The notes: a model not told the origin generated them from the letters alone. A DNA stretch of 64,000 nucleotides from Lachnospiraceae bacterium (GCA_045590555.1 JAZNRC010000023.1:2915-66914), one strand, 5' to 3'. Counted from the stretch's first letter, positions 3,672 through 61,720 are shown. Program-made: numbers and translations.

Positions 3672-4319
3672 CTAACCTGCGTAATAATTCAGTTTCTTCT
3701 CGATAAAACCGAAAAGGAGGGTCAAAACACCCGTGAAAAGCAGATAAAATGCGCCAATATAAAAGATAGGCCAAATGATTGCATGAAGTCCAACGATATC
3801 CTGAGCCGCCTTCAAAAGTTCCACAACGGAAACAACACGGGCAAGTGATGTATCTTTTACAAGGGTAATGACTTCATTTCCCATGGGGGGCAAAATTCTT
3901 TTAATGACCTGGAACAATACTACACGGAAGAAAATCTGGGTTTTGGTCATACCCAGCACCTGTCCCGCTTCGTACTGGCCAACGGGAATACTCTCGATTC
4001 CGCCTCGGTAAATCTCGGAAAAATACGCTGCATAATTTACAATAAAAGCCACTACAACCGCAGGAAAACGGTCTAAACCCTGGATGCCAAAAATCAGACC
4101 CGGTCCGTAAAATACCAAAATTACCTGAAGCATCAAGGGCGTTCCTCGAATCACCCACACAATACCTCTTGTCAGATAACGCAACGGCTTAAACTTGGAC
4201 ATGGAACCGAACGCAATGACCAGACCTAACGGCAATGCACCCACTAATGTAATTAAAAACAGAATTAATGTTACTTTAAAACCATCCAACAATTGTAATG
4301 TGACTTCTAAAAAACTCAT
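3672..4319 (-). CDS. Polar amino-acid ABC transporter permease
   Basis: IRGTPLMLQ and AYFSEIYRGGIESIPVGQYEAGQVLGMT (EAA loop), LVKDTSL. Confidence 0.93.
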   Translation of the reverse strand: MSFLEVTLQLLDGFKVTLILFLITLVGALPLGLVIAFGSMSKFKPLRYLTRGIVWVIRGTPLMLQVILVFYGPGLIFGIQGLDRFPAVVVAFIVNYAAYFSEIYRGGIESIPVGQYEAGQVLGMTKTQIFFRVVLFQVIKRILPPMGNEVITLVKDTSLARVVSVVELLKAAQDIVGLHAIIWPIFYIGAFYLLFTGVLTLLFGFIEKKLNYYAG

Positions 4320-7905: not shown

Positions 7906-10131
7906 CTATTGTTTTATTAACAGAATTTCCTCATCCGTGGACCAGGAAAATGATAATTGTACACTGTTTTCTTCCCGATATCCGGTATATTCCTTCCCAT
8001 ATACATAGTAAACCTCTCCCGGTTTTAAAATCGCTTGAGGAAGTTTTCCTTTCGTCAGTTCGCCTTCATCATCCGTCAGGCAATAATTTTCCAAATCAAT
8101 AACTGTCTGCCCGTTATTTTCTAAAACAACATAATCTTGCGAACCTTTTACATGGTACTGTGAAATAATAAGACTTTCTACGGATGCATCCACCTCCGAA
8201 TGAATCTTAATATCTAAAATTTCTGCCTTAAAATCACCCGGTATGATTTCCAGTACTTCACCAGCCCTGTATTCACCGTTTACGGTATATCCCGTTATCT
8301 TAATTCCGGGATTGGGTTCACACTCTATTCTCATGGGAACGTCTTCGAAATAATTACCGGTAAAACCACCGGTTATTTCGTATCCGTTTAATATAATTAC
8401 ATCTTCAAAATCTGCATTAATATTTACGGTAATTAAATTCTGCAGTTCCAGATAATTCTGCATTTCGCCAATTACAACACCGGGTCTGATTTGTCCGTAT
8501 TCGACAATTTCCGTCATCTCATTGAGTACATTATTTATATTATTGTCATCGCTTTCCAAAAGGGAACCTTTCAGCAAATCCGTATTCTGCATCATATGTT
8601 CCAGCTCTACGTAATGAAGACTGTTCATATCATACAACTCTTTTGCCACATTGTCCTGCTGAAATCCGGTATTCATGACATGCATGACTGCCTGAATAAA
8701 CAAGATTCTGAATTCTTCCTTCTTCATTAAAGCGGCAAAAAGTTCGGCAGACTCCTCTTCTTCGCACAGTGAAGCCAACCTCTCATGCGAAGGCTCGTAT
8801 CCGTAAGCTTCCACAACACGCAGTCCCAAACCATAATCCGTATCAAACAGCAGATACCGATATCTTCCGTCGAAAACTGTTCCTTCCTTATACTCCTCAC
8901 CTTCAGCAGGCTTATATGCATATACTTTTACATTATTCTGCGGCCAGTCAATATTGCCAATATAATATTCAATTGCCATATACAGCGCAAAATTTTCCAA
9001 ATCCAGTTTTTCTTTTACATATTCCCAGTTTTCCGGAGTTTCCAAATCCGACTGAACTACCTTGTTCACAAACGCATTATACTCATTATATACTTCCAGT
9101 TCTTCTTCGGTTTCTGCGCTGTCCGTCCAAACCTCGCTTAATGTTCCTTCACAAATATAGAATTCGCCTTCATAATCTCCGTATTTTTCCTGAAAATACC
9201 GATCATCATAGGTATTGTTAATCCAATAGACACCCTGATATCTGCCATTGACGAAAACCACTGCACTTTCCGCCACGAAAACATCCTGAAATCCGGATTG
9301 TCTTGCAAGTTCTCCCACCAACTCCGTTCGAATAAATCCATATCCGTTGTCATCTCCGGAATTGTGGAAAGAAAGCCTCTGATAATTATCAATTACCGTA
9401 TTGCTTGCATCCGAAACCAACTTATCCATAAACGGATAAAAGAATTCATTTAATCCCTCGTAGGCATCCCGTGCTATCAAACGAAAAGATTTCTGATTCT
9501 TGGCTCTTGTATAATTTCCGTATATTTTCAGCCCGCAATTCTGACTGACTACTTCTTCCCTTTCTGCGTCAAATATTGTTGCGTGAACTTCTATCTCTTT
9601 ATCAATCCAGAAATTTCCGTCAATCAACCCCCATATGCTGGCATCCGGATTTTCTTCCCAATACTGATCCCAACGGGCTCCTCTTGCAAAAATACCCTCT
9701 TCGTAACCGAATATATCTTCTTCTTTTCCTGTAATAGACACAACATAAGTTGTACTAAACCGTCCTGCGCCATTCACATCTACAAAATAATCTCGGTTGT
9801 ACACTTCCGATTGCGTGCCATCTTCAAAAACACAACAAAAACGATAGGAATAAACGGCTGTTTCATCCTGCAACTCAATATATATCGGTTCACTGTAAAT
9901 ATTAGGCTCGCCACTTTCTATATCCGGAAGCGTTCCGTCTGTAGTATAGTAAATCACTGCTTCCGATCCGGGTTTCACGGTTAAGTAGAATGATTCATTA
10001 TAAAATCCGCTCTCATGAGAAATTTTAACTTCATATCGATTCTCATATTTCTGATAAGCCCACAGCAAAACTATGGTAAAAAAAAGTAAAAATGCCCCAA
10101 ACAAAACTCCGGCTGTTTTTCTTTTATTCAT
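7906..10131 (-). CDS. CotH kinase family protein (N-terminal membrane anchor, Fn3-associated/chitobiase-like domain, C-terminal lamin-tail-like domain)
   Basis: IYYTTDGTLP; KSFRLIAR; NGRYQGVY; NIDWPQNN; RYLLFDTDYG; C-terminal YVVLENNG..IDLENYCLTD. Confidence 0.85.
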   Translation of the reverse strand: MNKRKTAGVLFGAFLLFFTIVLLWAYQKYENRYEVKISHESGFYNESFYLTVKPGSEAVIYYTTDGTLPDIESGEPNIYSEPIYIELQDETAVYSYRFCCVFEDGTQSEVYNRDYFVDVNGAGRFSTTYVVSITGKEEDIFGYEEGIFARGARWDQYWEENPDASIWGLIDGNFWIDKEIEVHATIFDAEREEVVSQNCGLKIYGNYTRAKNQKSFRLIARDAYEGLNEFFYPFMDKLVSDASNTVIDNYQRLSFHNSGDDNGYGFIRTELVGELARQSGFQDVFVAESAVVFVNGRYQGVYWINNTYDDRYFQEKYGDYEGEFYICEGTLSEVWTDSAETEEELEVYNEYNAFVNKVVQSDLETPENWEYVKEKLDLENFALYMAIEYYIGNIDWPQNNVKVYAYKPAEGEEYKEGTVFDGRYRYLLFDTDYGLGLRVVEAYGYEPSHERLASLCEEEESAELFAALMKKEEFRILFIQAVMHVMNTGFQQDNVAKELYDMNSLHYVELEHMMQNTDLLKGSLLESDDNNINNVLNEMTEIVEYGQIRPGVVIGEMQNYLELQNLITVNINADFEDVIILNGYEITGGFTGNYFEDVPMRIECEPNPGIKITGYTVNGEYRAGEVLEIIPGDFKAEILDIKIHSEVDASVESLIISQYHVKGSQDYVVLENNGQTVIDLENYCLTDDEGELTKGKLPQAILKPGEVYYVYGKEYTGYREENSVQLSFSWSTDEEILLIKQ

Positions 10132-14603: not shown

Positions 14604-14756
14604 AGCTCTATCCCACTCTTGATTTTTATCTTCCCCCAGTATAACATAAACCGCAGAGAGCATAGGATATTTTTTCTAAAATTTTTATAAAAAAGCCATA
14701 AAACGCCGATGCTGTTTCCGTATCTATATCAGATAGCCCATTTAAAGGAGGTTTTT

Positions 14757-16070
14757 ATGAAAAAAAGATATCTTCGTTACATAGCAATACTCACTTTAAT
14801 TCCCTTACTATTCATAACCGGTTGCGGCAACAACCCTGCCTTTGAATTTAATATTATGGATGAGTTATTTGCAGAATTTGAAGAACCGGAAGAACCCGAC
14901 GTTGAAATTCCCTCAGACTATGAAAGACCCATACTTGCCGAGGATATGAATGAAGCCTATGTGGATTTTTCCATTGAATTATTCAAAAGAAGCCTGGCCG
15001 AAGGTGAAAACTCCATGATTTCTCCGGCTTCCGTGGAATTTGCCCTGGTGATGGCATTAAACGGTGCCGACAATGAAACTCTAACGGAAATGCTCACCAT
15101 ACTTTGTCCCGGTGCAACTCAGGAAGAAATCAATGCTTTTGTACAGGATTTGGACGATATGCTTACCTACAGTGAAAGTACTGCTTTTAATATTGCCAAC
15201 TCCATATGGTGTAACGAAAGTGTTTTAGGCGATTGTTTAAATGAAAGTTTTGCAGACGCCTTAAAAGAAGATATGAATGCAGAAGCTTATATGCTTCCTT
15301 TTAATGATAAAGCCGTAAAAGAAATCAATAACTGGGTGGATGATAATACAAACGGAATGATTACCGAACTTCTGGATGAAATCCCCCCCGAAGCGGCAAT
15401 GTATTTAATCAACGCCATTGCTTTTGAAGGCGAGTGGGAAGAAGCTTACGAAGATTATCAGATTAAAGAAGATGGCATTTTCAATAATGCTGCAGGTGAA
15501 GAAGAGCAGGCCAGAATGTTAAAAGAAACCGGCTCCCATTATTTTGAAAATGAAGATGCCGTTGGTTTTATGAAATATTATGACGGCAGAGACTATGCTT
15601 TTCTTGCCATGCTTCCTAAGGAAGAGGGAGCCATTGAGGATTTTGTTAATGAAATGACTGCGGAAGACTATATGACCTTTTATAAAAGCCATACCACGGA
15701 ATACGACGTAATAACGGAATTACCCTGTTTTACCTACTCTTATGATGTGACTATGAACGATGCTCTCATAGATATGGGCATGCAGACTCCTTTTTCGGAA
15801 GATTATGCCGATTTTTCTCTTATGGTCACTGACCCGGAAGTAGAATTATATATCAACAGAGTGATGCATAAGACCTATATTGAATTAGATGAAAACGGCA
15901 CCAAGGCCGCAGCGGTTACTGCAGTGGAAATGAACTGCGAATCCTGTGCAGAACCGGAACTTCGTGAAGTAAAGGAAGTCATTCTGGACAGACCTTTTGT
16001 CTATGCCATTGTGGATGTGGAAACCGGTTTACCGGTATTCATCGGAACCGTGAATTCGGTTGCGAAATAA
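14757..16070 (+). CDS. Serpin family lipoprotein
   Basis: Lipobox ITGC; NSMISPAS, INNWVDDNTNGMI, LINAIAFEGEW, ELDENGTKAAAVT hinge, DRPFVY signature; AAGGAGG RBS before ATG 14757. Confidence 0.93.
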   Translation: MKKRYLRYIAILTLIPLLFITGCGNNPAFEFNIMDELFAEFEEPEEPDVEIPSDYERPILAEDMNEAYVDFSIELFKRSLAEGENSMISPASVEFALVMALNGADNETLTEMLTILCPGATQEEINAFVQDLDDMLTYSESTAFNIANSIWCNESVLGDCLNESFADALKEDMNAEAYMLPFNDKAVKEINNWVDDNTNGMITELLDEIPPEAAMYLINAIAFEGEWEEAYEDYQIKEDGIFNNAAGEEEQARMLKETGSHYFENEDAVGFMKYYDGRDYAFLAMLPKEEGAIEDFVNEMTAEDYMTFYKSHTTEYDVITELPCFTYSYDVTMNDALIDMGMQTPFSEDYADFSLMVTDPEVELYINRVMHKTYIELDENGTKAAAVTAVEMNCESCAEPELREVKEVILDRPFVYAIVDVETGLPVFIGTVNSVAK

Positions 16071-16097: not shown

Positions 16098-16231
16098 AAA
16101 AGCAATATATCAATTCTTCGCGGGGACGCTCTCGCTTGGTTGTCCCACGTAGCGGCACCTAGGGTTGCAAAATACGCAACCCAAATGCCGACGGGTACAA
16201 ACACCCCTTAAAGAAATGATATATTGCTTTT
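16098..16231 (+). repeat. Long-hairpin dispersed element, copy E1 (ACGCTCTCGCT family)
   Basis: 15-bp outer IR AAAAGCAATATATCA/TGATATATTGCTTTT enclosing nested stems; shares a 25-nt and a 19-nt exact block with 18094-18233 (reverse strand). Confidence 0.85.
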
Positions 16232-16242
16232 TTCATTTTTAC

Positions 16243-17373
16243 TTAATTCAAATCAAACGTGATATTCCAGTCACCTTTGATACTGTCGTCACGGACTTCA
16301 CCTTCTCCCCAAATAGTGCAGGTTTCCAGTTGTTCTTCCGTAATTACGAAATAGTATTCCTCCATCGATATTTTCTCATTTGCAACATCTTCCTGCCAGC
16401 CCACAGCCAGATTCGGATGGATTTGGTTGCCGGCTTCATCCAGCATATAAATGTTCATATGACGGTCTGCTTCCCTGAAATTTCCCCGGCAAAGCTGGAT
16501 GCGAAGAATACCGTCCATGTAAGCAATACCTGTGATTTTCATTTCATCAGGACTTATATTGTCCAAAGGTATATCCATTACCAGATGACCGGGACGAGGA
16601 TCAACTTCATTCCCGGGTACCGTAAGCTTATCCAGTGCCGGATGCATCTGCTCCATACCACTGCGTCCGTTCAGGCTTACGGACTTTACCTCCACGGATT
16701 GCACCATATCATTCAACCGGATTTCCTCCTGAAAGCTTTCACAATCAGTCAGTAGCTGATGCACGCTAAATTCCATTCTGTCTGTATCAAAGCTACCGTC
16801 CGTACTCATCAAATCAATCTGAAAATACGCTTTATCCTGTTCTGCATCATATTCCATAAAAGCACAACCGCCCACATTGCTGTCTTCACCGTAACTTTGC
16901 AAATTGTAACTGTCATACATATCTACCATTCCGTGTATATAATCGCTGGTGCCATCATCCGTAAAAGAGACCAAAATCTCTGCCCTATTTCCTTCCACAT
17001 ATGCAGCTTCCAAAGTAAGAACAATGCCACGGTCGGTGTCCGTTTCCTGTATGGGAATCAGATAATCCAGAAGCCCCGGTGCCTTACGCTCCAAAACCCC
17101 ATAAAATGCAGGTATGTTCTCAGCCGCAACCGGTGCTCCCAAAACAACAGACAGACAGACAATCAGCATCATTGCTGCCATCGTAGGGAGAATTCTTCGC
17201 GTTATTTTCCCGGCTGGCATTGCTTTTTTCTTCGTATTTTTATCCTGCAACAGTTCTATTTTATAATGATTTCTTTTATCAAAAGACCCTATCCACTCTG
17301 CCACCTGCGCTTCGCTAACTTCACCTTGAAAGGCAATTTTATGATAAGCACTTTTATATGTATCCTGAAACAT
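16243..17373 (-). CDS. Anti-sigma factor-like membrane protein (DUF4179 type)
   Basis: Single TM after N-terminal cytoplasmic part, TDRGIVLTLEAAY domain start; ATG overlaps the sigma stop (TAATG). Confidence 0.75.
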   Translation of the reverse strand: MFQDTYKSAYHKIAFQGEVSEAQVAEWIGSFDKRNHYKIELLQDKNTKKKAMPAGKITRRILPTMAAMMLIVCLSVVLGAPVAAENIPAFYGVLERKAPGLLDYLIPIQETDTDRGIVLTLEAAYVEGNRAEILVSFTDDGTSDYIHGMVDMYDSYNLQSYGEDSNVGGCAFMEYDAEQDKAYFQIDLMSTDGSFDTDRMEFSVHQLLTDCESFQEEIRLNDMVQSVEVKSVSLNGRSGMEQMHPALDKLTVPGNEVDPRPGHLVMDIPLDNISPDEMKITGIAYMDGILRIQLCRGNFREADRHMNIYMLDEAGNQIHPNLAVGWQEDVANEKISMEEYYFVITEEQLETCTIWGEGEVRDDSIKGDWNITFDLN

Positions 17374-17912
17374 TACACATCCTCCTTTAACCAATCTTTT
17401 AGCATTTTACGCGCTCTGGTAAGTCTGGTCCGCACATTGGAAGGCCGCAAATTAAGAGCTCCGGCAATTTCTTCAATGCTCATTTCCTCATAGTAAAAGA
17501 GGTGTATCACTGCCCTATACTTTAACGGCAGGCGTTTCACTGTTTCCACAACCAGTTCCTCTTCTTCAGTTAACTCTTTCTTCCCTTGCCCGGCATTCAT
17601 ACAATCGGTTTTACAATACCTACTGCCTGAATCTTCGTCTTCTTCCAACGAATTCATACTTACCACACGTTGTCGCCATGCTGTTTTCCATAAGTTTTTA
17701 CATAGATTGGTTGTAACACGGATAAACCACGCCCTCTCATGCTCGCTATTTTCAAAAATCGGATTCGTGCGGATATATCGCAACATAACTTCCTGTCGGA
17801 TATCCTCTGCATCCTGATTTGTTTTTACCATGGAAAAGGCAAGGCGATACACACAATCTGAATTTCTCTTTATAATCTCTGTCATTTTTTCTACGCGTAG
17901 ATCATTCTGCAT
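17373..17912 (-). CDS. ECF RNA polymerase sigma factor (sigma-70 family)
   Basis: VYRLAF..QDAEDIRQEV, AWFIRVTTNLCKN, LPLKYRAVIHLFYYEEMSIEEIA, VRTRLTRARKML. Confidence 0.92.
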   Translation of the reverse strand: MQNDLRVEKMTEIIKRNSDCVYRLAFSMVKTNQDAEDIRQEVMLRYIRTNPIFENSEHERAWFIRVTTNLCKNLWKTAWRQRVVSMNSLEEDEDSGSRYCKTDCMNAGQGKKELTEEEELVVETVKRLPLKYRAVIHLFYYEEMSIEEIAGALNLRPSNVRTRLTRARKMLKDWLKEDV

Positions 17913-17935
17913 CTCACCACCCCTTTCACTTAATA

Positions 17936-17962
17936 TACAAATCAACATTCGAAAAAGCTACA
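17936..17962 (-). promoter_or_regulatory. Possible ECF-type autoregulatory promoter
   Basis: Minus strand TGTAGC-N16-TGTAT upstream of the sigma RBS, resembling TGAAAC-N16-CGTA. Confidence 0.3.
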
Positions 17963-18037: not shown

Positions 18038-18093
18038 CATTCACTATAATACTACCCATTCTCTTGTCTTTTTCATTTTATAAGCAATACACA

Positions 18094-18233
18094 GCCGTGA
18101 GAAGAATATATATTGCTTTAAGGGGTGTTTGTACTCGCCGGTATTTAGGCTGTGTTTTTTACAGCCTTATATACCGCTGCGTAGGACAACCAAGCGAGAG
18201 CGTCCCCGTAAGCATATATATCCTTCTCACGGC
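18094..18233 (-). repeat. Long-hairpin dispersed element, copy E2
   Basis: Outer IR GCCGTGAGAAG/CTTCTCACGGC; AGCGAGAGCGT at 18193-18203; co-linear with E1 with compensatory changes. Confidence 0.85.
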
Positions 18234-18258
18234 GTCCTCTTATAAAATAAGCGTCCCC

Positions 18259-20391
18259 TTACCGTAAAATAACCCAAATCAAATAAATAATGGTCAATAC
18301 CAACCCCAGGCAGAACAGAATCAATCCGTAAGATAAACTTCTGGCAATAATCTGATTATTCTCTGCCTGCTCTTCCCAACGTACCGCAAAAATATGCTCG
18401 AAAGATTTACGGATGGGGTTCTTTTTGCAAACGGTCTTATTCAACACCCAAACTACTTTATCCACTATTACAGCCGCAATATGAGTAAGCGGATTACCTT
18501 CCGGAAGTTCATGTGGAAGCGGGCTGTCCTTATACACCGTTTTGCGAAGCCATACCACAGGAGCATCCACAATACGATCCAATACCCTGCATATAATTCC
18601 ACAGATAAACGGAATAAATTTAATAAAAACAGGTCTGTAAATACTATTTTCCAAATCCATCCACTTTGGCCAGAAATCACCATAGATGTCCTTGCCGCTT
18701 TCATCCTTCTTCATAAGACAGATTCGCACAAGCGCATAATACAGAATCACTCCGATGGCGATAGATATCAAAGAACCTTTCATATTGTGGAAAACAAAAT
18801 AATGCACGGAATGGTCAAGAAGACCTACGTTAAAAATATTCTGTCCGAAATCCATTACAAAATCTGCCGTCACATTGGGTATCATGCCGATTACCGGAAT
18901 TAGAACGGCACTGCCAAGCAAAGCAAATCCGCTTCCGAAATTCATATACTTCTTTTTTGCATCGAATTCCGCCTGCTTCTCTTCGTCCCCGTTTTTCTCT
19001 ATGAAAATGCAAATATACAATTTTAGCATATAAGCTAAAGTACAGCCTCCGGCTAACAAATAAAGCATTTCCACATAACCGGGAACCGAAGGAACCTCCA
19101 GCATTCCTTCATGAATCAAAGTTTTTCCGATATAGCCGTTAAAAAACGGAATACCTGAGATACCCAGTACACCCAGTAAAAACGCTATATTGAGCAAAGG
19201 TTTTTTACGACCGAAGCCTCGGATATCATTTAAATTCAGCTTATGAGTATTCATGTAAATCACACCTGCCGCCATAAAAAGTACCAGCTTTAAAATAGAG
19301 TGATTCACCATATAAATCAAAGTTCCTCTTGCCGCCAGCACATTTTCTCCGTGAGATATGGCAAGAATTGCCACGCCGGTTAAAATAAAACCAATCTGAG
19401 ATAGGGAGGAACAAGCCAGCACCCTTTTTAAATCCACGGAAAACAATGCCAACAGCGCTCCCAGAAGCATTGTTACCACTGCAATTGCCAGCAACATATA
19501 TCCAAACCATTCCGTATATCGGAAAACATGCACCGAAATCATAATAATACCAAAAATACCTGTTTTGGTAAGTACACCCGATAAAAGTGCCGATGCCGGT
19601 GCCGGTGCCACCGGATGTGCTTTGGGCAACCAAATGTGCACGGGAAAGGCACCTGCTTTTACCGCAAATCCGAATAAAATGCAGATTCCCGCAGCAATAA
19701 TCTGTCCGGGTAACTCAATAATATCACCCAGCATAATTCGCATCTGATAGATAATTTCGCTAAACATCAGGGTTCCCAGACTGTCCCACAGCATAAAAAT
19801 ACCCATCAGCATAACCATACCGCCGATTATGGAAATGCCCAAATAGGTTTCCGCTGCTTTTAAGGCTTCCGGCTTTTCCTCCTGCGCTACCCAAACGTAA
19901 GAAGTTAAGGACATAATCTCGAAGAAAATAAAAGTGGTAAAAAAGTCCGCCGAGAGGAAAACACCCATAGTCGCCCCCAGGGTTACCAGAAGAAAGGCAT
20001 AAAAGCGGTTACGGTTGCGATGCTTTGCAAAATATTCGGGACAAAGCAAGGTAACCATCATCCACATAAATGCCACAACCAAGGCGTATACACTGCGAAA
20101 ACCGTCTAAGGTAAAATGAATCCCCATGCCGCAAATGTCCGGAATTTCCAATCCAAACTTCATCAGGCTTCCCACAAGAACCGGAGATTGTGCGCCTACT
20201 GCCATTAACGTTTTGCCGGATTCGTTATATCCCAAAAGGACCGTAAATGCCACCAGCGCAAATTCACTTATGGTGATAAAATTTGCCGCCAAATTGCGGG
20301 CAGTCTTCCATCTAAGCCCGACAAGATAAGAAATCAGGGCTCCCAACATGGGATAAAAAATCATTATGGCAATTAAAATATCATATCTCAT
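18259..20391 (-). CDS. MrpD/NuoL-like proton-conducting antiporter subunit (4th, with C-terminal extension)
   Basis: FFEIMSLTS, KAGAFPVHIWLPKAHPVAPAPASALLSGVLTKTG, LKRVLACSS. Confidence 0.88.
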   Translation of the reverse strand: MRYDILIAIMIFYPMLGALISYLVGLRWKTARNLAANFITISEFALVAFTVLLGYNESGKTLMAVGAQSPVLVGSLMKFGLEIPDICGMGIHFTLDGFRSVYALVVAFMWMMVTLLCPEYFAKHRNRNRFYAFLLVTLGATMGVFLSADFFTTFIFFEIMSLTSYVWVAQEEKPEALKAAETYLGISIIGGMVMLMGIFMLWDSLGTLMFSEIIYQMRIMLGDIIELPGQIIAAGICILFGFAVKAGAFPVHIWLPKAHPVAPAPASALLSGVLTKTGIFGIIMISVHVFRYTEWFGYMLLAIAVVTMLLGALLALFSVDLKRVLACSSLSQIGFILTGVAILAISHGENVLAARGTLIYMVNHSILKLVLFMAAGVIYMNTHKLNLNDIRGFGRKKPLLNIAFLLGVLGISGIPFFNGYIGKTLIHEGMLEVPSVPGYVEMLYLLAGGCTLAYMLKLYICIFIEKNGDEEKQAEFDAKKKYMNFGSGFALLGSAVLIPVIGMIPNVTADFVMDFGQNIFNVGLLDHSVHYFVFHNMKGSLISIAIGVILYYALVRICLMKKDESGKDIYGDFWPKWMDLENSIYRPVFIKFIPFICGIICRVLDRIVDAPVVWLRKTVYKDSPLPHELPEGNPLTHIAAVIVDKVVWVLNKTVCKKNPIRKSFEHIFAVRWEEQAENNQIIARSLSYGLILFCLGLVLTIIYLIWVILR

Positions 20392-55000: not shown

Positions 55001-55072
55001 TGCTCCCAGCAGGAATCGAACCTGCAACTAGCCCTTAGGAGGGGCTTGTTATATCCATTTAACTATGGAAGC
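55001..55072 (-). tRNA. tRNA-Arg (anticodon CCT), CCA not encoded
   Basis: GCTTCCA/TGGGAGC acceptor stem, AGCCC-CTCCTAA-GGGCT anticodon arm, GGTTCGATTCC T-arm. Confidence 0.95.
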
Positions 55073-57280: not shown

Positions 57281-57399
57281 GAATTTCACCTCTTTTCTGA
57301 TACATTTATAACTTATCTTTTTTATCAAAAAGAAGATATCACATCTTAAATAACTCTCTATTAAAAATTTTATCTATAAAAAACATAATTTCTTACAAA

Positions 57400-57552
57400 G
57401 ACAGGAGTAGGTTTTATATATTTCCTTAAGAACCTTATGAACTGCGTCGGCGCTTAACGAATGCAGACATAGTCTGTATGAGTTTAGCATCCGCTACGTT
57501 GTTCATAGAGCGAGAGCGTGTTCGCAAGGAATTATATAAAACCTACTCCGTC
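57400..57552 (-). repeat. Long-hairpin dispersed element, copy E3 (diverged)
   Basis: Outer IR GGAGTAGGTTTTATATA/TATATAAAACCTACTCC; AGCGAGAGCGT at 57509-57519, CCGCTACGT at 57491-57499, CGTCGGC at 57445-57451. Confidence 0.82.
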
Positions 57553-57564
57553 CCATTATAAAAA

Positions 57565-58842
57565 TTATCTAATTTCGCTCTTTCCACCCATATAAGGTCT
57601 CAATGCCTCAGGAATACGAACGGAACCGTCTTCCTGATAGTTATTCTCCAAGAATGCAATAAGTGCACGGGGTGTAGCCAATACAGTATTGTTTAAGGTA
57701 TGCACATAGTAAGTACCGTTTTCACCCTTGGTACGAATTTTCAAACGTCTTGCCTGCGCATCACCTAAAGTTGAGCAAGAACCAACCTCAAAATATTTCT
57801 GCTGTCTGGGGCTCCATGCTTCCACGTCGCAGGATTTTACTTTTAAGTCAGCTAAGTCACCGCTACAGCATTCCAAAGTACGAACGGGAATGTCTAAACT
57901 GCGGAAAAATTCTACCGAGTACTGCCACATCTTGTTGTACCAATCCATGGAATCTTCGGGTTTACATAAAACTACCATTTCCTGCTTTTCAAACTGATGC
58001 ACACGATATACACCACGCTCTTCCATACCATGAGCGCCTACTTCCTTACGGAAACAGGGTGAGTATGAGGTCATGGCAATGGGTAACTGGCTTTCTTCCA
58101 CGATTTCGCCCTGGAATTTGCCAATCATGGAGTGCTCGGAAGTACCGATTAAGAATAAGTCTTCACCCTCAATTTTATACATCATTGCTTCCATTTCCGC
58201 AAAACTCATAACGCCGTTTACCACGTCACTACGAATCATAAAAGGCGGAATGCAATAGGTAAATCCTTTATCAATCATAAAATCTCTGGCATAGCTAATC
58301 ATAGCTGAGTGAATTCTTGCAGCATCGCCCATTAAGTAGTAGAAACCTTCACCACTGGTTCTTCCTGCAGCCTTCTTGTCCAAACCATTCATACTATTAA
58401 TAATATCTGCATGGAAAGGAACTTCGTATTCCGGAACAACGGGATCGCCGTACTTCTGGATTTCAACATTTTCGGAGTCATCCTTACCGATGGGAACACT
58501 TTCATCAATGATATTAGGAATTACCATCATGATTTTGGTAGTTTTTTCTTCCAGCTCTTTCTGCTTTGCTTCAAGCTCTGTTAAACGCTGTGCACCTTCG
58601 GCAACCTGCTTTTTTACTTCTTCAGCTTCTTCTTTTTTACCCTGAGCCATTAACGCACCGATTTGCTTCGCAATTTTATTTTTATTTGCTTTGATATCAT
58701 CAACTTCCTGCTGTGTTTTTCTTCTTTCAGCATCAAGTTCAATTACCTCATCCACCAATGCAATCTTCTCATCCTGGAATTTCTTTCGGATATTCTCTTT
58801 TACCAATTCCGGATTTTCTCTCAAAAACTTAATATCAATCAT
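57565..58842 (-). CDS. serS: Serine--tRNA ligase
   Basis: MIDIKFLRENPE, LIGTSEH, CFRKEVGAHG, GVYRVHQFEKQE, VHTLNNT. Confidence 0.97.
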   Translation of the reverse strand: MIDIKFLRENPELVKENIRKKFQDEKIALVDEVIELDAERRKTQQEVDDIKANKNKIAKQIGALMAQGKKEEAEEVKKQVAEGAQRLTELEAKQKELEEKTTKIMMVIPNIIDESVPIGKDDSENVEIQKYGDPVVPEYEVPFHADIINSMNGLDKKAAGRTSGEGFYYLMGDAARIHSAMISYARDFMIDKGFTYCIPPFMIRSDVVNGVMSFAEMEAMMYKIEGEDLFLIGTSEHSMIGKFQGEIVEESQLPIAMTSYSPCFRKEVGAHGMEERGVYRVHQFEKQEMVVLCKPEDSMDWYNKMWQYSVEFFRSLDIPVRTLECCSGDLADLKVKSCDVEAWSPRQQKYFEVGSCSTLGDAQARRLKIRTKGENGTYYVHTLNNTVLATPRALIAFLENNYQEDGSVRIPEALRPYMGGKSEIR

Positions 58843-61556: not shown

Positions 61557-61638
61557 AAGGGGTATAAATATTAAATATGGAATGTTTCACGATATTTAGT
61601 AAAATGTTTCACATTTTTTAGACTATATATTGATAAAA

Positions 61639-61654
61639 TGTTTCACGTGAAACA
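61639..61654. other. parS site 1
   Basis: TGTTTCACGTGAAACA, perfect match to the Firmicute parS consensus, upstream of parAB. Confidence 0.93.
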
Positions 61655-61689
61655 TAATATCTTGTGTTTGTAGGAAATAGCATGTTTAA

Positions 61690-61705
61690 TGTTTCACGTG
61701 AAACA
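61690..61705. other. parS site 2 (within a 32-bp perfect palindrome)
   Basis: ATGTTTAATGTTTCACGTGAAACATTAAACAT at 61682-61713. Confidence 0.93.
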
Positions 61706-61720
61706 TTAAACATATCATTA

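Follow-up and report, generated by a model that had tools for sequence, protein, structure and literature searches.

Three intergenic hairpins (E1, E2 and E3) in a 64-kb stretch of Lachnospiraceae DNA, the whole of which is referred to here as the window, belong to a large family of dispersed repeats. Judged from sequence comparison, this family is probably a REP/REPIN- or MITE-like, non-autonomous and mobile DNA repeat, built as a long palindrome, located in intergenic positions and sister to the TwoAYGGAY motif. The initial annotation of the window had set two readings side by side, a strand-polarised structured motif of 3'-UTRs and a REP/MITE-like DNA hairpin, and empty sites, deletions, an inversion and replacements among related strains make the second the better of the two. 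A core that is conserved family-wide, loci at which copies are dispensable and an absence of orientation constraint form a combination characteristic of selfish, non-autonomous mobile repeats, and the occurrence of doublets that are present or absent as whole units adds to this reading. Presence and absence could also come from deletion and homologous exchange between strains, and neither an excised intermediate nor a de novo insertion was seen.

The 11-mer ACGCTCTCGCT has three exact matches in the window, against a chance expectation of 0.31, and the rods that contain it are 134-146 nt long (Table 1). The three intervals as first annotated fold with z-scores of -7.7 to -9.8 relative to shuffled sequence, their complementary strands fold equally well, and E1, E2 and E3 are the longest spaced inverted repeats of the window (inverted repeats I1, I2 and I5). 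When copies from other genomes are used to build a covariance model, it matches exactly these three in the window, at 67-78 bits. Exact 11-mers, fold scores and model matches thus agree that the look-alike rods are real copies of one family. The genes said to lie upstream, a serpin (E1), an Mrp-type antiporter subunit (E2) and serS (E3), are borne out by Pfam, and the stated distances of 13-28 nt from their stop codons are correct: the serpin stop is at 16070 and E1 starts at 16098, the Mrp subunit stops at 18259 and E2 starts at 18233, and serS stops at 57565, with the earlier E3 interval starting at 57552. That earlier interval (57400-57552) does contain a real hairpin, but its bounds are shifted to those of Table 1 by the GGAC/TGT frame described below, which places the start of E3 16 nt 3' of the serS stop. 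E1 is without this frame and has A-run and T-run sequence on either side of its arms, and E2 lies 5' of the Mrp operon's own terminator.

Table 1. Positions of the hairpin copies, their parts, allelic changes and neighbouring TwoAYGGAY RNAs (window coordinates unless a locus is named)
Feature	Position	Strand	Details
E1 hairpin, 134 nt, between convergent serpin and DUF4179 genes	16098..16231	+	fold z -7.75; model match 16114-16215, 75.2 bits
E1 11-nt bulge ACGCTCTCGCT	16126..16136	+	exact match, model
E2 hairpin, 140 nt, 3' region of Mrp operon	18094..18233	-	fold z -8.45; model match 18114-18215, 78.1 bits
E2 11-nt bulge	18193..18203	-	exact match
E2 5' frame motif GGAC, directly 5' of first paired G	18234..18237	-	
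E2 3' frame motif TGTGTAT, directly 3' of last paired C	18087..18093	-	
E2 outward extension, ~21 nt	18238..18258	-	present in window, L140 and L125; absent from L142, L144 and L145
E3 hairpin, 146 nt, 3' of serS	57404..57549	-	fold z -9.83; model match 57422-57531, 67.4 bits; bounds from GGAC/TGT frame
E3 11-nt bulge	57509..57519	-	exact match
E3 5' frame motif GGAC	57550..57553	-	
E3 3' frame motif TGT	57401..57403	-	
E3 deletion, 158 nt	57375..57532		contigs of three metagenomes (X1, X3, X5); 57374 joined to 57533, 4-nt microhomology
TwoAYGGAY RNAs 3' of subfamily-A copies	L025:4506-4671, L043:2414-2578, L106:6220-6385, L077:4804-4885		RF01731

The element is one continuous rod, 130-250 nt long across the family, in which the 3' strand is uninterrupted and the 5' strand carries the 11-nt bulge and an AG bulge; the part above the bulges consists of three pairs, then an internal loop of the UAA/UAA type, then an apical hairpin that varies from ~20 to more than 100 nt. 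The apical third of the rod is conserved in sequence and asymmetric. The 11-mer, which had been described as an invariant unpaired segment, is indeed unpaired, but it forms a pure 5'-strand bulge and not one side of an internal loop. Its invariance holds for the three window copies, where the match is exact, but across the family it is nearly and not strictly invariant, the bulge having the form RCGCT-NN-CGCT with one to three changes in 16 model matches that lack the exact 11-mer searched for. The structured nature claimed for the family is strongly supported by covariation: 84.2% of cells are paired as opposed to 59.2% after shuffling, and the real alignment has a covariation score of 0.505, compared with 0.145 when shuffled and at most 0.105 in partner-slid controls. 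Changes on both sides are seen in 31 of the 34 pairs, and the Y position of ACGYAGCGG has the R position of CCGRCG as its covarying partner (C-G 78 times, U-A 32 times). Basal arms, 20-75 nt long and often perfectly paired, are free to vary provided that pairing is kept. They differ between copies of one genome, the cores of which are near-identical, in line with the outer stem having been noted as different at every locus, but within some lineages arm sequences are common to several loci. RNAfold applied to wide flanks over-extended the stems, and arm alignment was therefore used instead.

A pattern in which the 11-mer is combined with ACGYAGCGG, the second conserved block, has at least 119 matches in the genome contigs of a collection with one genome per species. 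Among the matches listed, the hosts are nearly all Lachnospiraceae with several copies per genome, and they include Oribacterium, Blautia, Robinsoniella, Acetatifactor, Eisenbergiella, Roseburia, [Clostridium] symbiosum and many MAGs. A covariance model, R1, built from 30 copies, has 119 matches in the 725 kb of retrieved loci, some of them missed by the pattern. Beyond the one copy per locus that seeded the retrieval, 27 R1 copies remain, or one per 31 kb, a spacing near that of the three copies in the 64-kb window, and in one genomic run ~140 contigs pile onto a single copy. A copy number of a hundred or more per genome is therefore realistic, in agreement with the early suggestion that there would be many.

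The plasmid collection has no match to the pattern, and among 2.9 million viral contigs there are nine pattern matches, with true copies on one contig only and the remaining eight being non-members. The contig in question, IMGVR_UViG_3300032038_000233 (L130, classed as viral), carries two G+C-rich (73-76%) members at 8597-8706 and 1699-1812. Two copies are also found on a Bacteroidota-binned contig labelled Muribaculaceae (L070, JAMPHJ010000094.1), one of them nearly identical to the copies of L087 and L089; mis-binning is here more likely than true presence outside Bacillota. A search of the whole window against Rfam 15 at gathering thresholds gave no match except for one tRNA gene (55001-55072, minus strand, 66 bits), and no family was found at E values up to 10 for E1/E2, E3 and a subfamily-A copy. 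The permissive matches, all sub-threshold, are to generic long-hairpin models (plastid 3'UTR, and MIR408 on both strands), and a sub-threshold CRISPR-repeat match at 17236-17265 lies outside the elements. Literature searches on the 11-mer, on Lachnospiraceae repeats or MITEs and on REP/RAYT in Clostridia returned nothing relevant. The family is previously uncatalogued in Rfam and in the literature searched, and the first impression of an unfamiliar element is upheld.

All three window copies carry the 11-mer on the strand of the upstream gene, from which a polarity relative to transcription had been proposed. Over ~90 loci, copies between co-directional genes have the same orientation as these genes in 28 cases and the opposite one in 24, a further 17 copies lie between convergent and 11 between divergent genes, and a single operon holds both orientations (panB-[+]-panC-[-]-panD). 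These counts and the pan operon, together with the inversion of E1 in sister strains, refute the reading as a strand-polarised 3'-UTR motif, and since orientation is random at this scale, the three-out-of-three polarity in the window is due to chance. As the genes of Firmicutes are mostly co-oriented with replication, the lack of a preferred orientation with respect to genes also makes it unlikely that copies are held in one orientation towards the replication fork.

No consistent promoter or terminator owned by the element was found; its 5' extensions are rich in G, and neither E2 nor E3 is followed by a U-run. TATAAT-like strings 5' of E2 and E3 were considered as a promoter of the element and rejected, as they belong to the A+T-rich palindrome extension and other copies have a G-rich 5' flank. 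In place of the short G+C-rich stem and U-run of an intrinsic terminator, E2 is followed by TGTGTAT and E3 by TGTCTTT, and T-runs beside the element occur at E1 only, next to its long A+T-rich stem. The idea that the element inserts into terminator stems is likewise not upheld: a related site lacking E2 has a separate terminator of its own, and outgrowth of the palindrome is seen instead.

These features bear on the possibility that the family is a multicopy structured ncRNA, acting as an sRNA or protein sponge or as a cis element parallel to TwoAYGGAY, in which the bulges and the UAA loop bind a protein or a target RNA and spread is secondary. Covariation is strong and the conserved nucleotides are the unpaired ones, both as expected of an RNA, and E2 is transcribed, as its place 3' of a stop codon but 5' of the operon's terminator implies. 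On the bulge-bearing strand of the long arms, G:T-type mismatches exceed A:C-type mismatches (110 vs 65), which would fit RNA or a folding that matters solely on this strand; the model-defined helices, however, show no such wobble excess (122 vs 118), so that the two results conflict. The neighbouring TwoAYGGAY is catalogued as a probable RNA and has been proposed to act as a Csr/Rsm sponge (10.64898/2026.09.22.753630), but the frame common to the two families puts the bulge strand opposite the Rfam strand of TwoAYGGAY. With orientation random to transcription units and mixed within one operon, with E1 flipped between near-identical strains, with copies freely deleted within one population and with the lack of a consistent promoter and terminator of its own, an ncRNA is an unlikely account of the family; an RNA role would need to tolerate both random orientation and free copy loss.

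Random orientation would be less of an obstacle for a host-domesticated REP-like element that serves independently of orientation, whether in mRNA 3' end protection, RNase III processing, bidirectional termination or the binding of a nucleoid protein or topoisomerase. The functions of REP and BIME elements in E. coli offer an analogy, and the intergenic location, the conservation of the core across genera, the equal folding of the stem on both strands and the long stem of E1, which is set between convergent genes and has T-runs on either strand, are all in keeping with such a role. Nevertheless, copies are lost or swapped at their loci without visible constraint, a generic hairpin service would not need a conserved asymmetric core, and copies are tolerated 14 nt 5' of an internal ribosome-binding site in an operon and so are not strong terminators. 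Domestication of this kind is thus quite improbable, and a mobile, non-autonomous DNA repeat remains the preferred reading, which the behaviour of individual loci supports.

At the E1 locus, the whole interval is inverted, with zero differences, in a contig of metagenome X3 and in L122 and L123, which are independent ENA assemblies. The flanks of L122 and L123 are 98-99% identical to the window, and the two flanks of the X3 contig differ from it by 5% and 1.5%. The breakpoints of the inversion lie inside the 15-bp perfect arms (an inverted repeat). L124 has E1 in the same orientation as L122 and L123 and then diverges into another copy, and in L120 and L125-L127, E1 is replaced by a family member of ~250 nt with 75-nt arms. 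Strains that encode an identical DUF4179 protein carry E1 in either orientation or another family member altogether. The surrounding block of serpin (14709-16070), DUF4179 protein (16243-17394) and ECF-type sigma factor (17373-17948) genes is syntenic in all related contigs, and the serpin/DUF4179 spacer is a hotspot at which different family members replace one another.

Two orientations of E1 among near-identical strains, with breakpoints within 15-bp arms, are also what would be expected of an inverton, in which a site-specific recombinase flips the segment between inverted arms and thereby controls neighbouring genes, and the invertible switches of Clostridioides difficile are similar in size to E1. 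However, a single locus flips, the orientation of E2 being identical in every retrieved allele that carries it, and the two E1 orientations come from different samples, at the level of contigs. The outer stem and the flanking T-runs are unchanged by the flip, no promoter lies inside, no recombinase is evident, and more than 100 copies with unrelated arms cannot have one common recombinase site within these arms. As the flip is also an expected by-product of template switching at a palindrome, an inverton is very improbable, and the inversion is more readily placed among the rearrangements of a long-palindrome repeat.

E2 is present in most close strains, including L120, L125 and L140, and absent from the L127/L128 lineage (73% protein identity). 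In L144 and L145, which encode an identical sigma factor, the E2 core and 3' arm are deleted and the 5' flank and 5' arm remain, the deletion joints lying at TAT(T)GCTTA and TATA repeats (microhomology). Outside the coordinates first given for E2, the palindrome reaches 18075-18248, and the 21-nt extension found in only some strains (Table 1) repeats the 3' flank, CTTATAAAAT, in inverted form (18075-18086; z = 4.1 for the E2 outer helix), indicating that the palindrome has grown outward to these limits. At E3, a weaker pairing carries on outward to 57378-57575 (the extended arms are I1). The E3 deletion takes out 29 nt of flank together with the bulge, core and 3' arm and spares GGAC and 17 nt of the 5' arm; in run X3, this allele (depth 15.9) is found beside the filled one (depth 54).

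Partial alleles are for the most part deletions and not pristine empty sites. All four (L144:1340-1503, L145:335-487, window:57375-57532 and L154:2689-2769) keep the 5' flank and the 5' arm, in the orientation of the element itself, and have lost the bulge, core and 3' arm. Such alleles are read as the outcome of slippage when a polymerase enters from one side, which explains the one-sidedness only in part. A search for further half-elements found none. These alleles prompted a model in which the 3' arm is copied from an existing 5' flank at insertion; it was rejected as the main explanation, as the empty site lacks both arms and arms travel with copies within subfamilies; it is further disfavoured by the microhomology joints of all partial alleles, which fit slippage.

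Empty sites at orthologous loci, whose comparison had been proposed at the outset, do exist. Two convergent copies lie between an aminotransferase gene and bacA in a [C.] symbiosum-like locus, and the closest relative (98% protein identity) has at this position a clean 39-nt spacer, GGCG followed by TGAAAGGAGC, from which the whole doublet and both arms are missing. The same spacer is 22 nt long with no trace of a copy in a 92% relative, and holds a remnant in a 95% relative. The E2-less lineage mentioned above is another such case. The sole clean pair of filled and empty sites, that of the [C.] symbiosum-like locus, offers no more than an ambiguous candidate for a target-site duplication, a 4-bp GGCG that overlaps the arm. 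A reshaped copy is found in L058 (3700-3830), where the right half is the reverse complement of the left half, so that the 11-mer is on both arms and the model matches both strands.

Copies also occur as doublets. Among the 11 pairs of copies within 400 nt of each other, 10 are convergent, one is tandem and none is divergent; the TGT ends of a doublet face each other, the arms of its two members are unrelated to each other, and in one doublet both members are either there or missing together. The GGAC/TGT frame that marks these ends has the form (G-rich)-NGGAC / G-hairpin-C / TGT.T; as NGGAC / G-hairpin-C / TG(T) it is found in 34 of the 124 complete copies, E2 and E3 among them, across different arm subfamilies; the other 73%, including E1, are without it. 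Extra pairing carries on outside the frame in a subset of copies, in which GGAC/TGT thus becomes an internal loop. Between the two convergent copies of L096 there are ~five tandem repeats of ~45 nt (TGGCTGCTGGATATGCTTTCC...ATTCGCTTTCCAAGTA; 4048-4317), and repeats are reported to flank TwoAYGGAY in Pseudomonas as well (10.64898/2026.09.22.753630).

The frame also connects the family to TwoAYGGAY. Subfamily A consists of GGGGnTTGGATnAGAGGAC, a 148-nt hairpin and TGTGTATCGAAAAGC, in this order, and lies 140-255 nt 5' of a TwoAYGGAY RNA (RF01731, 51-100 bits; Table 1). All four complete TwoAYGGAY copies in this neighbourhood are framed in a like manner on the Rfam-minus strand (G-rich...GGAC / GCAA.AG...CT.TTGC / TGTTTT), so that a hairpin copy and its TwoAYGGAY neighbour again form a convergent doublet. 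TwoAYGGAY was looked for and not found near other subfamilies, the association being confined to one clade, and the link between the two is thus a common chassis and not a general co-occurrence. In Pseudomonas, TwoAYGGAY is reported to be multicopy, strain-variable, linked to REP arrays and enriched in doublets, 68% of which are divergent in the Rfam orientation, and the authors of the preprint suggest a mobile-element-like expansion in addition to the sponge role (10.64898/2026.09.22.753630). Divergent doublets in the Rfam orientation have the same geometry as the convergent doublets of the hairpin family.

Taken further, these parallels might mean that the GGAC/hairpin/TGT frame is a modular mobile chassis that moves as a convergent doublet by means of an enzyme acting in trans, with TwoAYGGAY and the bulge-bearing rod as interchangeable cargos, a proposal that is speculative and rather doubtful at present. 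If it were true, TwoAYGGAY, a 15-year-old orphan RNA motif, and the hairpin family would both stem from a single new class of mobile elements, based on single-strand hairpins and shared by gut Clostridia and Pseudomonas, as cargo variants of one system, and the cargos may be selected for their action as RNA or DNA decoys. The two families resemble each other in being multicopy, intergenic and not tied to particular genes, in the long basal stem, and in the frame (in Lachnospiraceae loci) and doublet geometry, neither of which is part of the Rfam definition of RF01731. They differ in that TwoAYGGAY has two AYGGAY-loop hairpins on a common basal stem, whereas the hairpin family has a single rod with an 11-nt CGCT-NN-CGCT bulge and one variable apex, and the RF01731 model matched no copy of the family in the window or the loci.

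Comparison with established systems gives a similarly mixed picture. With REP/REPIN-RAYT systems, described mostly in Proteobacteria, the family shares dispersed, intergenic, high-copy palindromes, singlets and inverted doublets, with the doublet as the apparent unit of gain and loss, independence of gene orientation and evolution as a population within a genome. REPs, however, are 20-40 nt long, with a conserved 5' GTAG and conserved stems, whereas the hairpin family has 130-250 nt, variable stems and a conserved asymmetric centre, and its GTAG-like tetranucleotide lies inside the element, in just those copies that have T at the Y position of ACGYAGCGG. When 1,541 ORFs from ~119 loci of up to 8 kb were clustered all against all, this revealed no transposase or recombinase recurring near the copies, and neither a RAYT gene flanked by copies nor an autonomous parent element was found in these loci; the genes between paired copies are ordinary, such as panC and, by eye, a carbonic-anhydrase-like gene. 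MITEs such as Correia, RUP and bcr1 are similar in size range, intergenic spread, hairpin potential, co-transcription with neighbours and presence or absence between strains, but they keep the terminal inverted repeats of a parent IS and target-site duplications, whereas here it is the centre that is conserved and the termini that vary, a parent IS was not found and there is no clear duplication. The attC sites of integrons have in common with the family a variable stem and loop, symmetry-breaking unpaired bases that mark one strand and a recognition by structure, which for the hairpin family is presumed. In contrast, the R''/R' boxes (RYYYAAC / GTTRRRY), cassette arrays and intI of attC are absent here, and the copies are dispersed between housekeeping genes and have a conserved apical core. 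Finally, template switching at quasipalindromes accounts for the perfect locus-specific arms, the E1 flip, L058, the E2 extension and the microhomology deletions of E2 and E3, but leaves the multiplication of copies and the conservation of an asymmetric core unexplained.

A mechanism that would accommodate these observations has two parts. In the first, the asymmetric bulges of the folded single strand may allow a DNA enzyme that acts in trans, from a gene elsewhere, to recognise the hairpin and read its polarity; this enzyme would copy or move the hairpin or doublet much as the extrahelical bases of attC, or GTAG and the hairpin of REP/RAYT systems, are used. In the second, palindrome dynamics would take over after insertion: intrastrand template switching would keep the arms complementary, flip or symmetrise the centre and extend the stem, and slippage at microhomologies would delete copies. 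Template switching, inversion or extension and slippage are known behaviours of long palindromes, and with them no selection on RNA is needed for arms to be specific to a locus and yet perfectly paired. The single-stranded DNA intermediate, the enzyme and an effect on neighbouring transcripts are inferred only.

Lachnospiraceae are among the most abundant bacteria of the human and ruminant gut, and a repeat that occurs there about once per 20-30 kb matters in practice. Metagenome assemblies are broken or wrongly joined by it, with contigs that end or switch inside copies, and it makes strain-level structural variation beside housekeeping genes. Within single species, its copies also document in nature how palindromes flip, become symmetrical, extend and slip. 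Palindromes of another kind occur in the window at 61570-61718, where a cluster of perfect palindromes on ATGTTTCACGTGAAACAT (I8, I11, I13 and I17) forms what looks like an array of operator-type sites, unrelated to the hairpin family.
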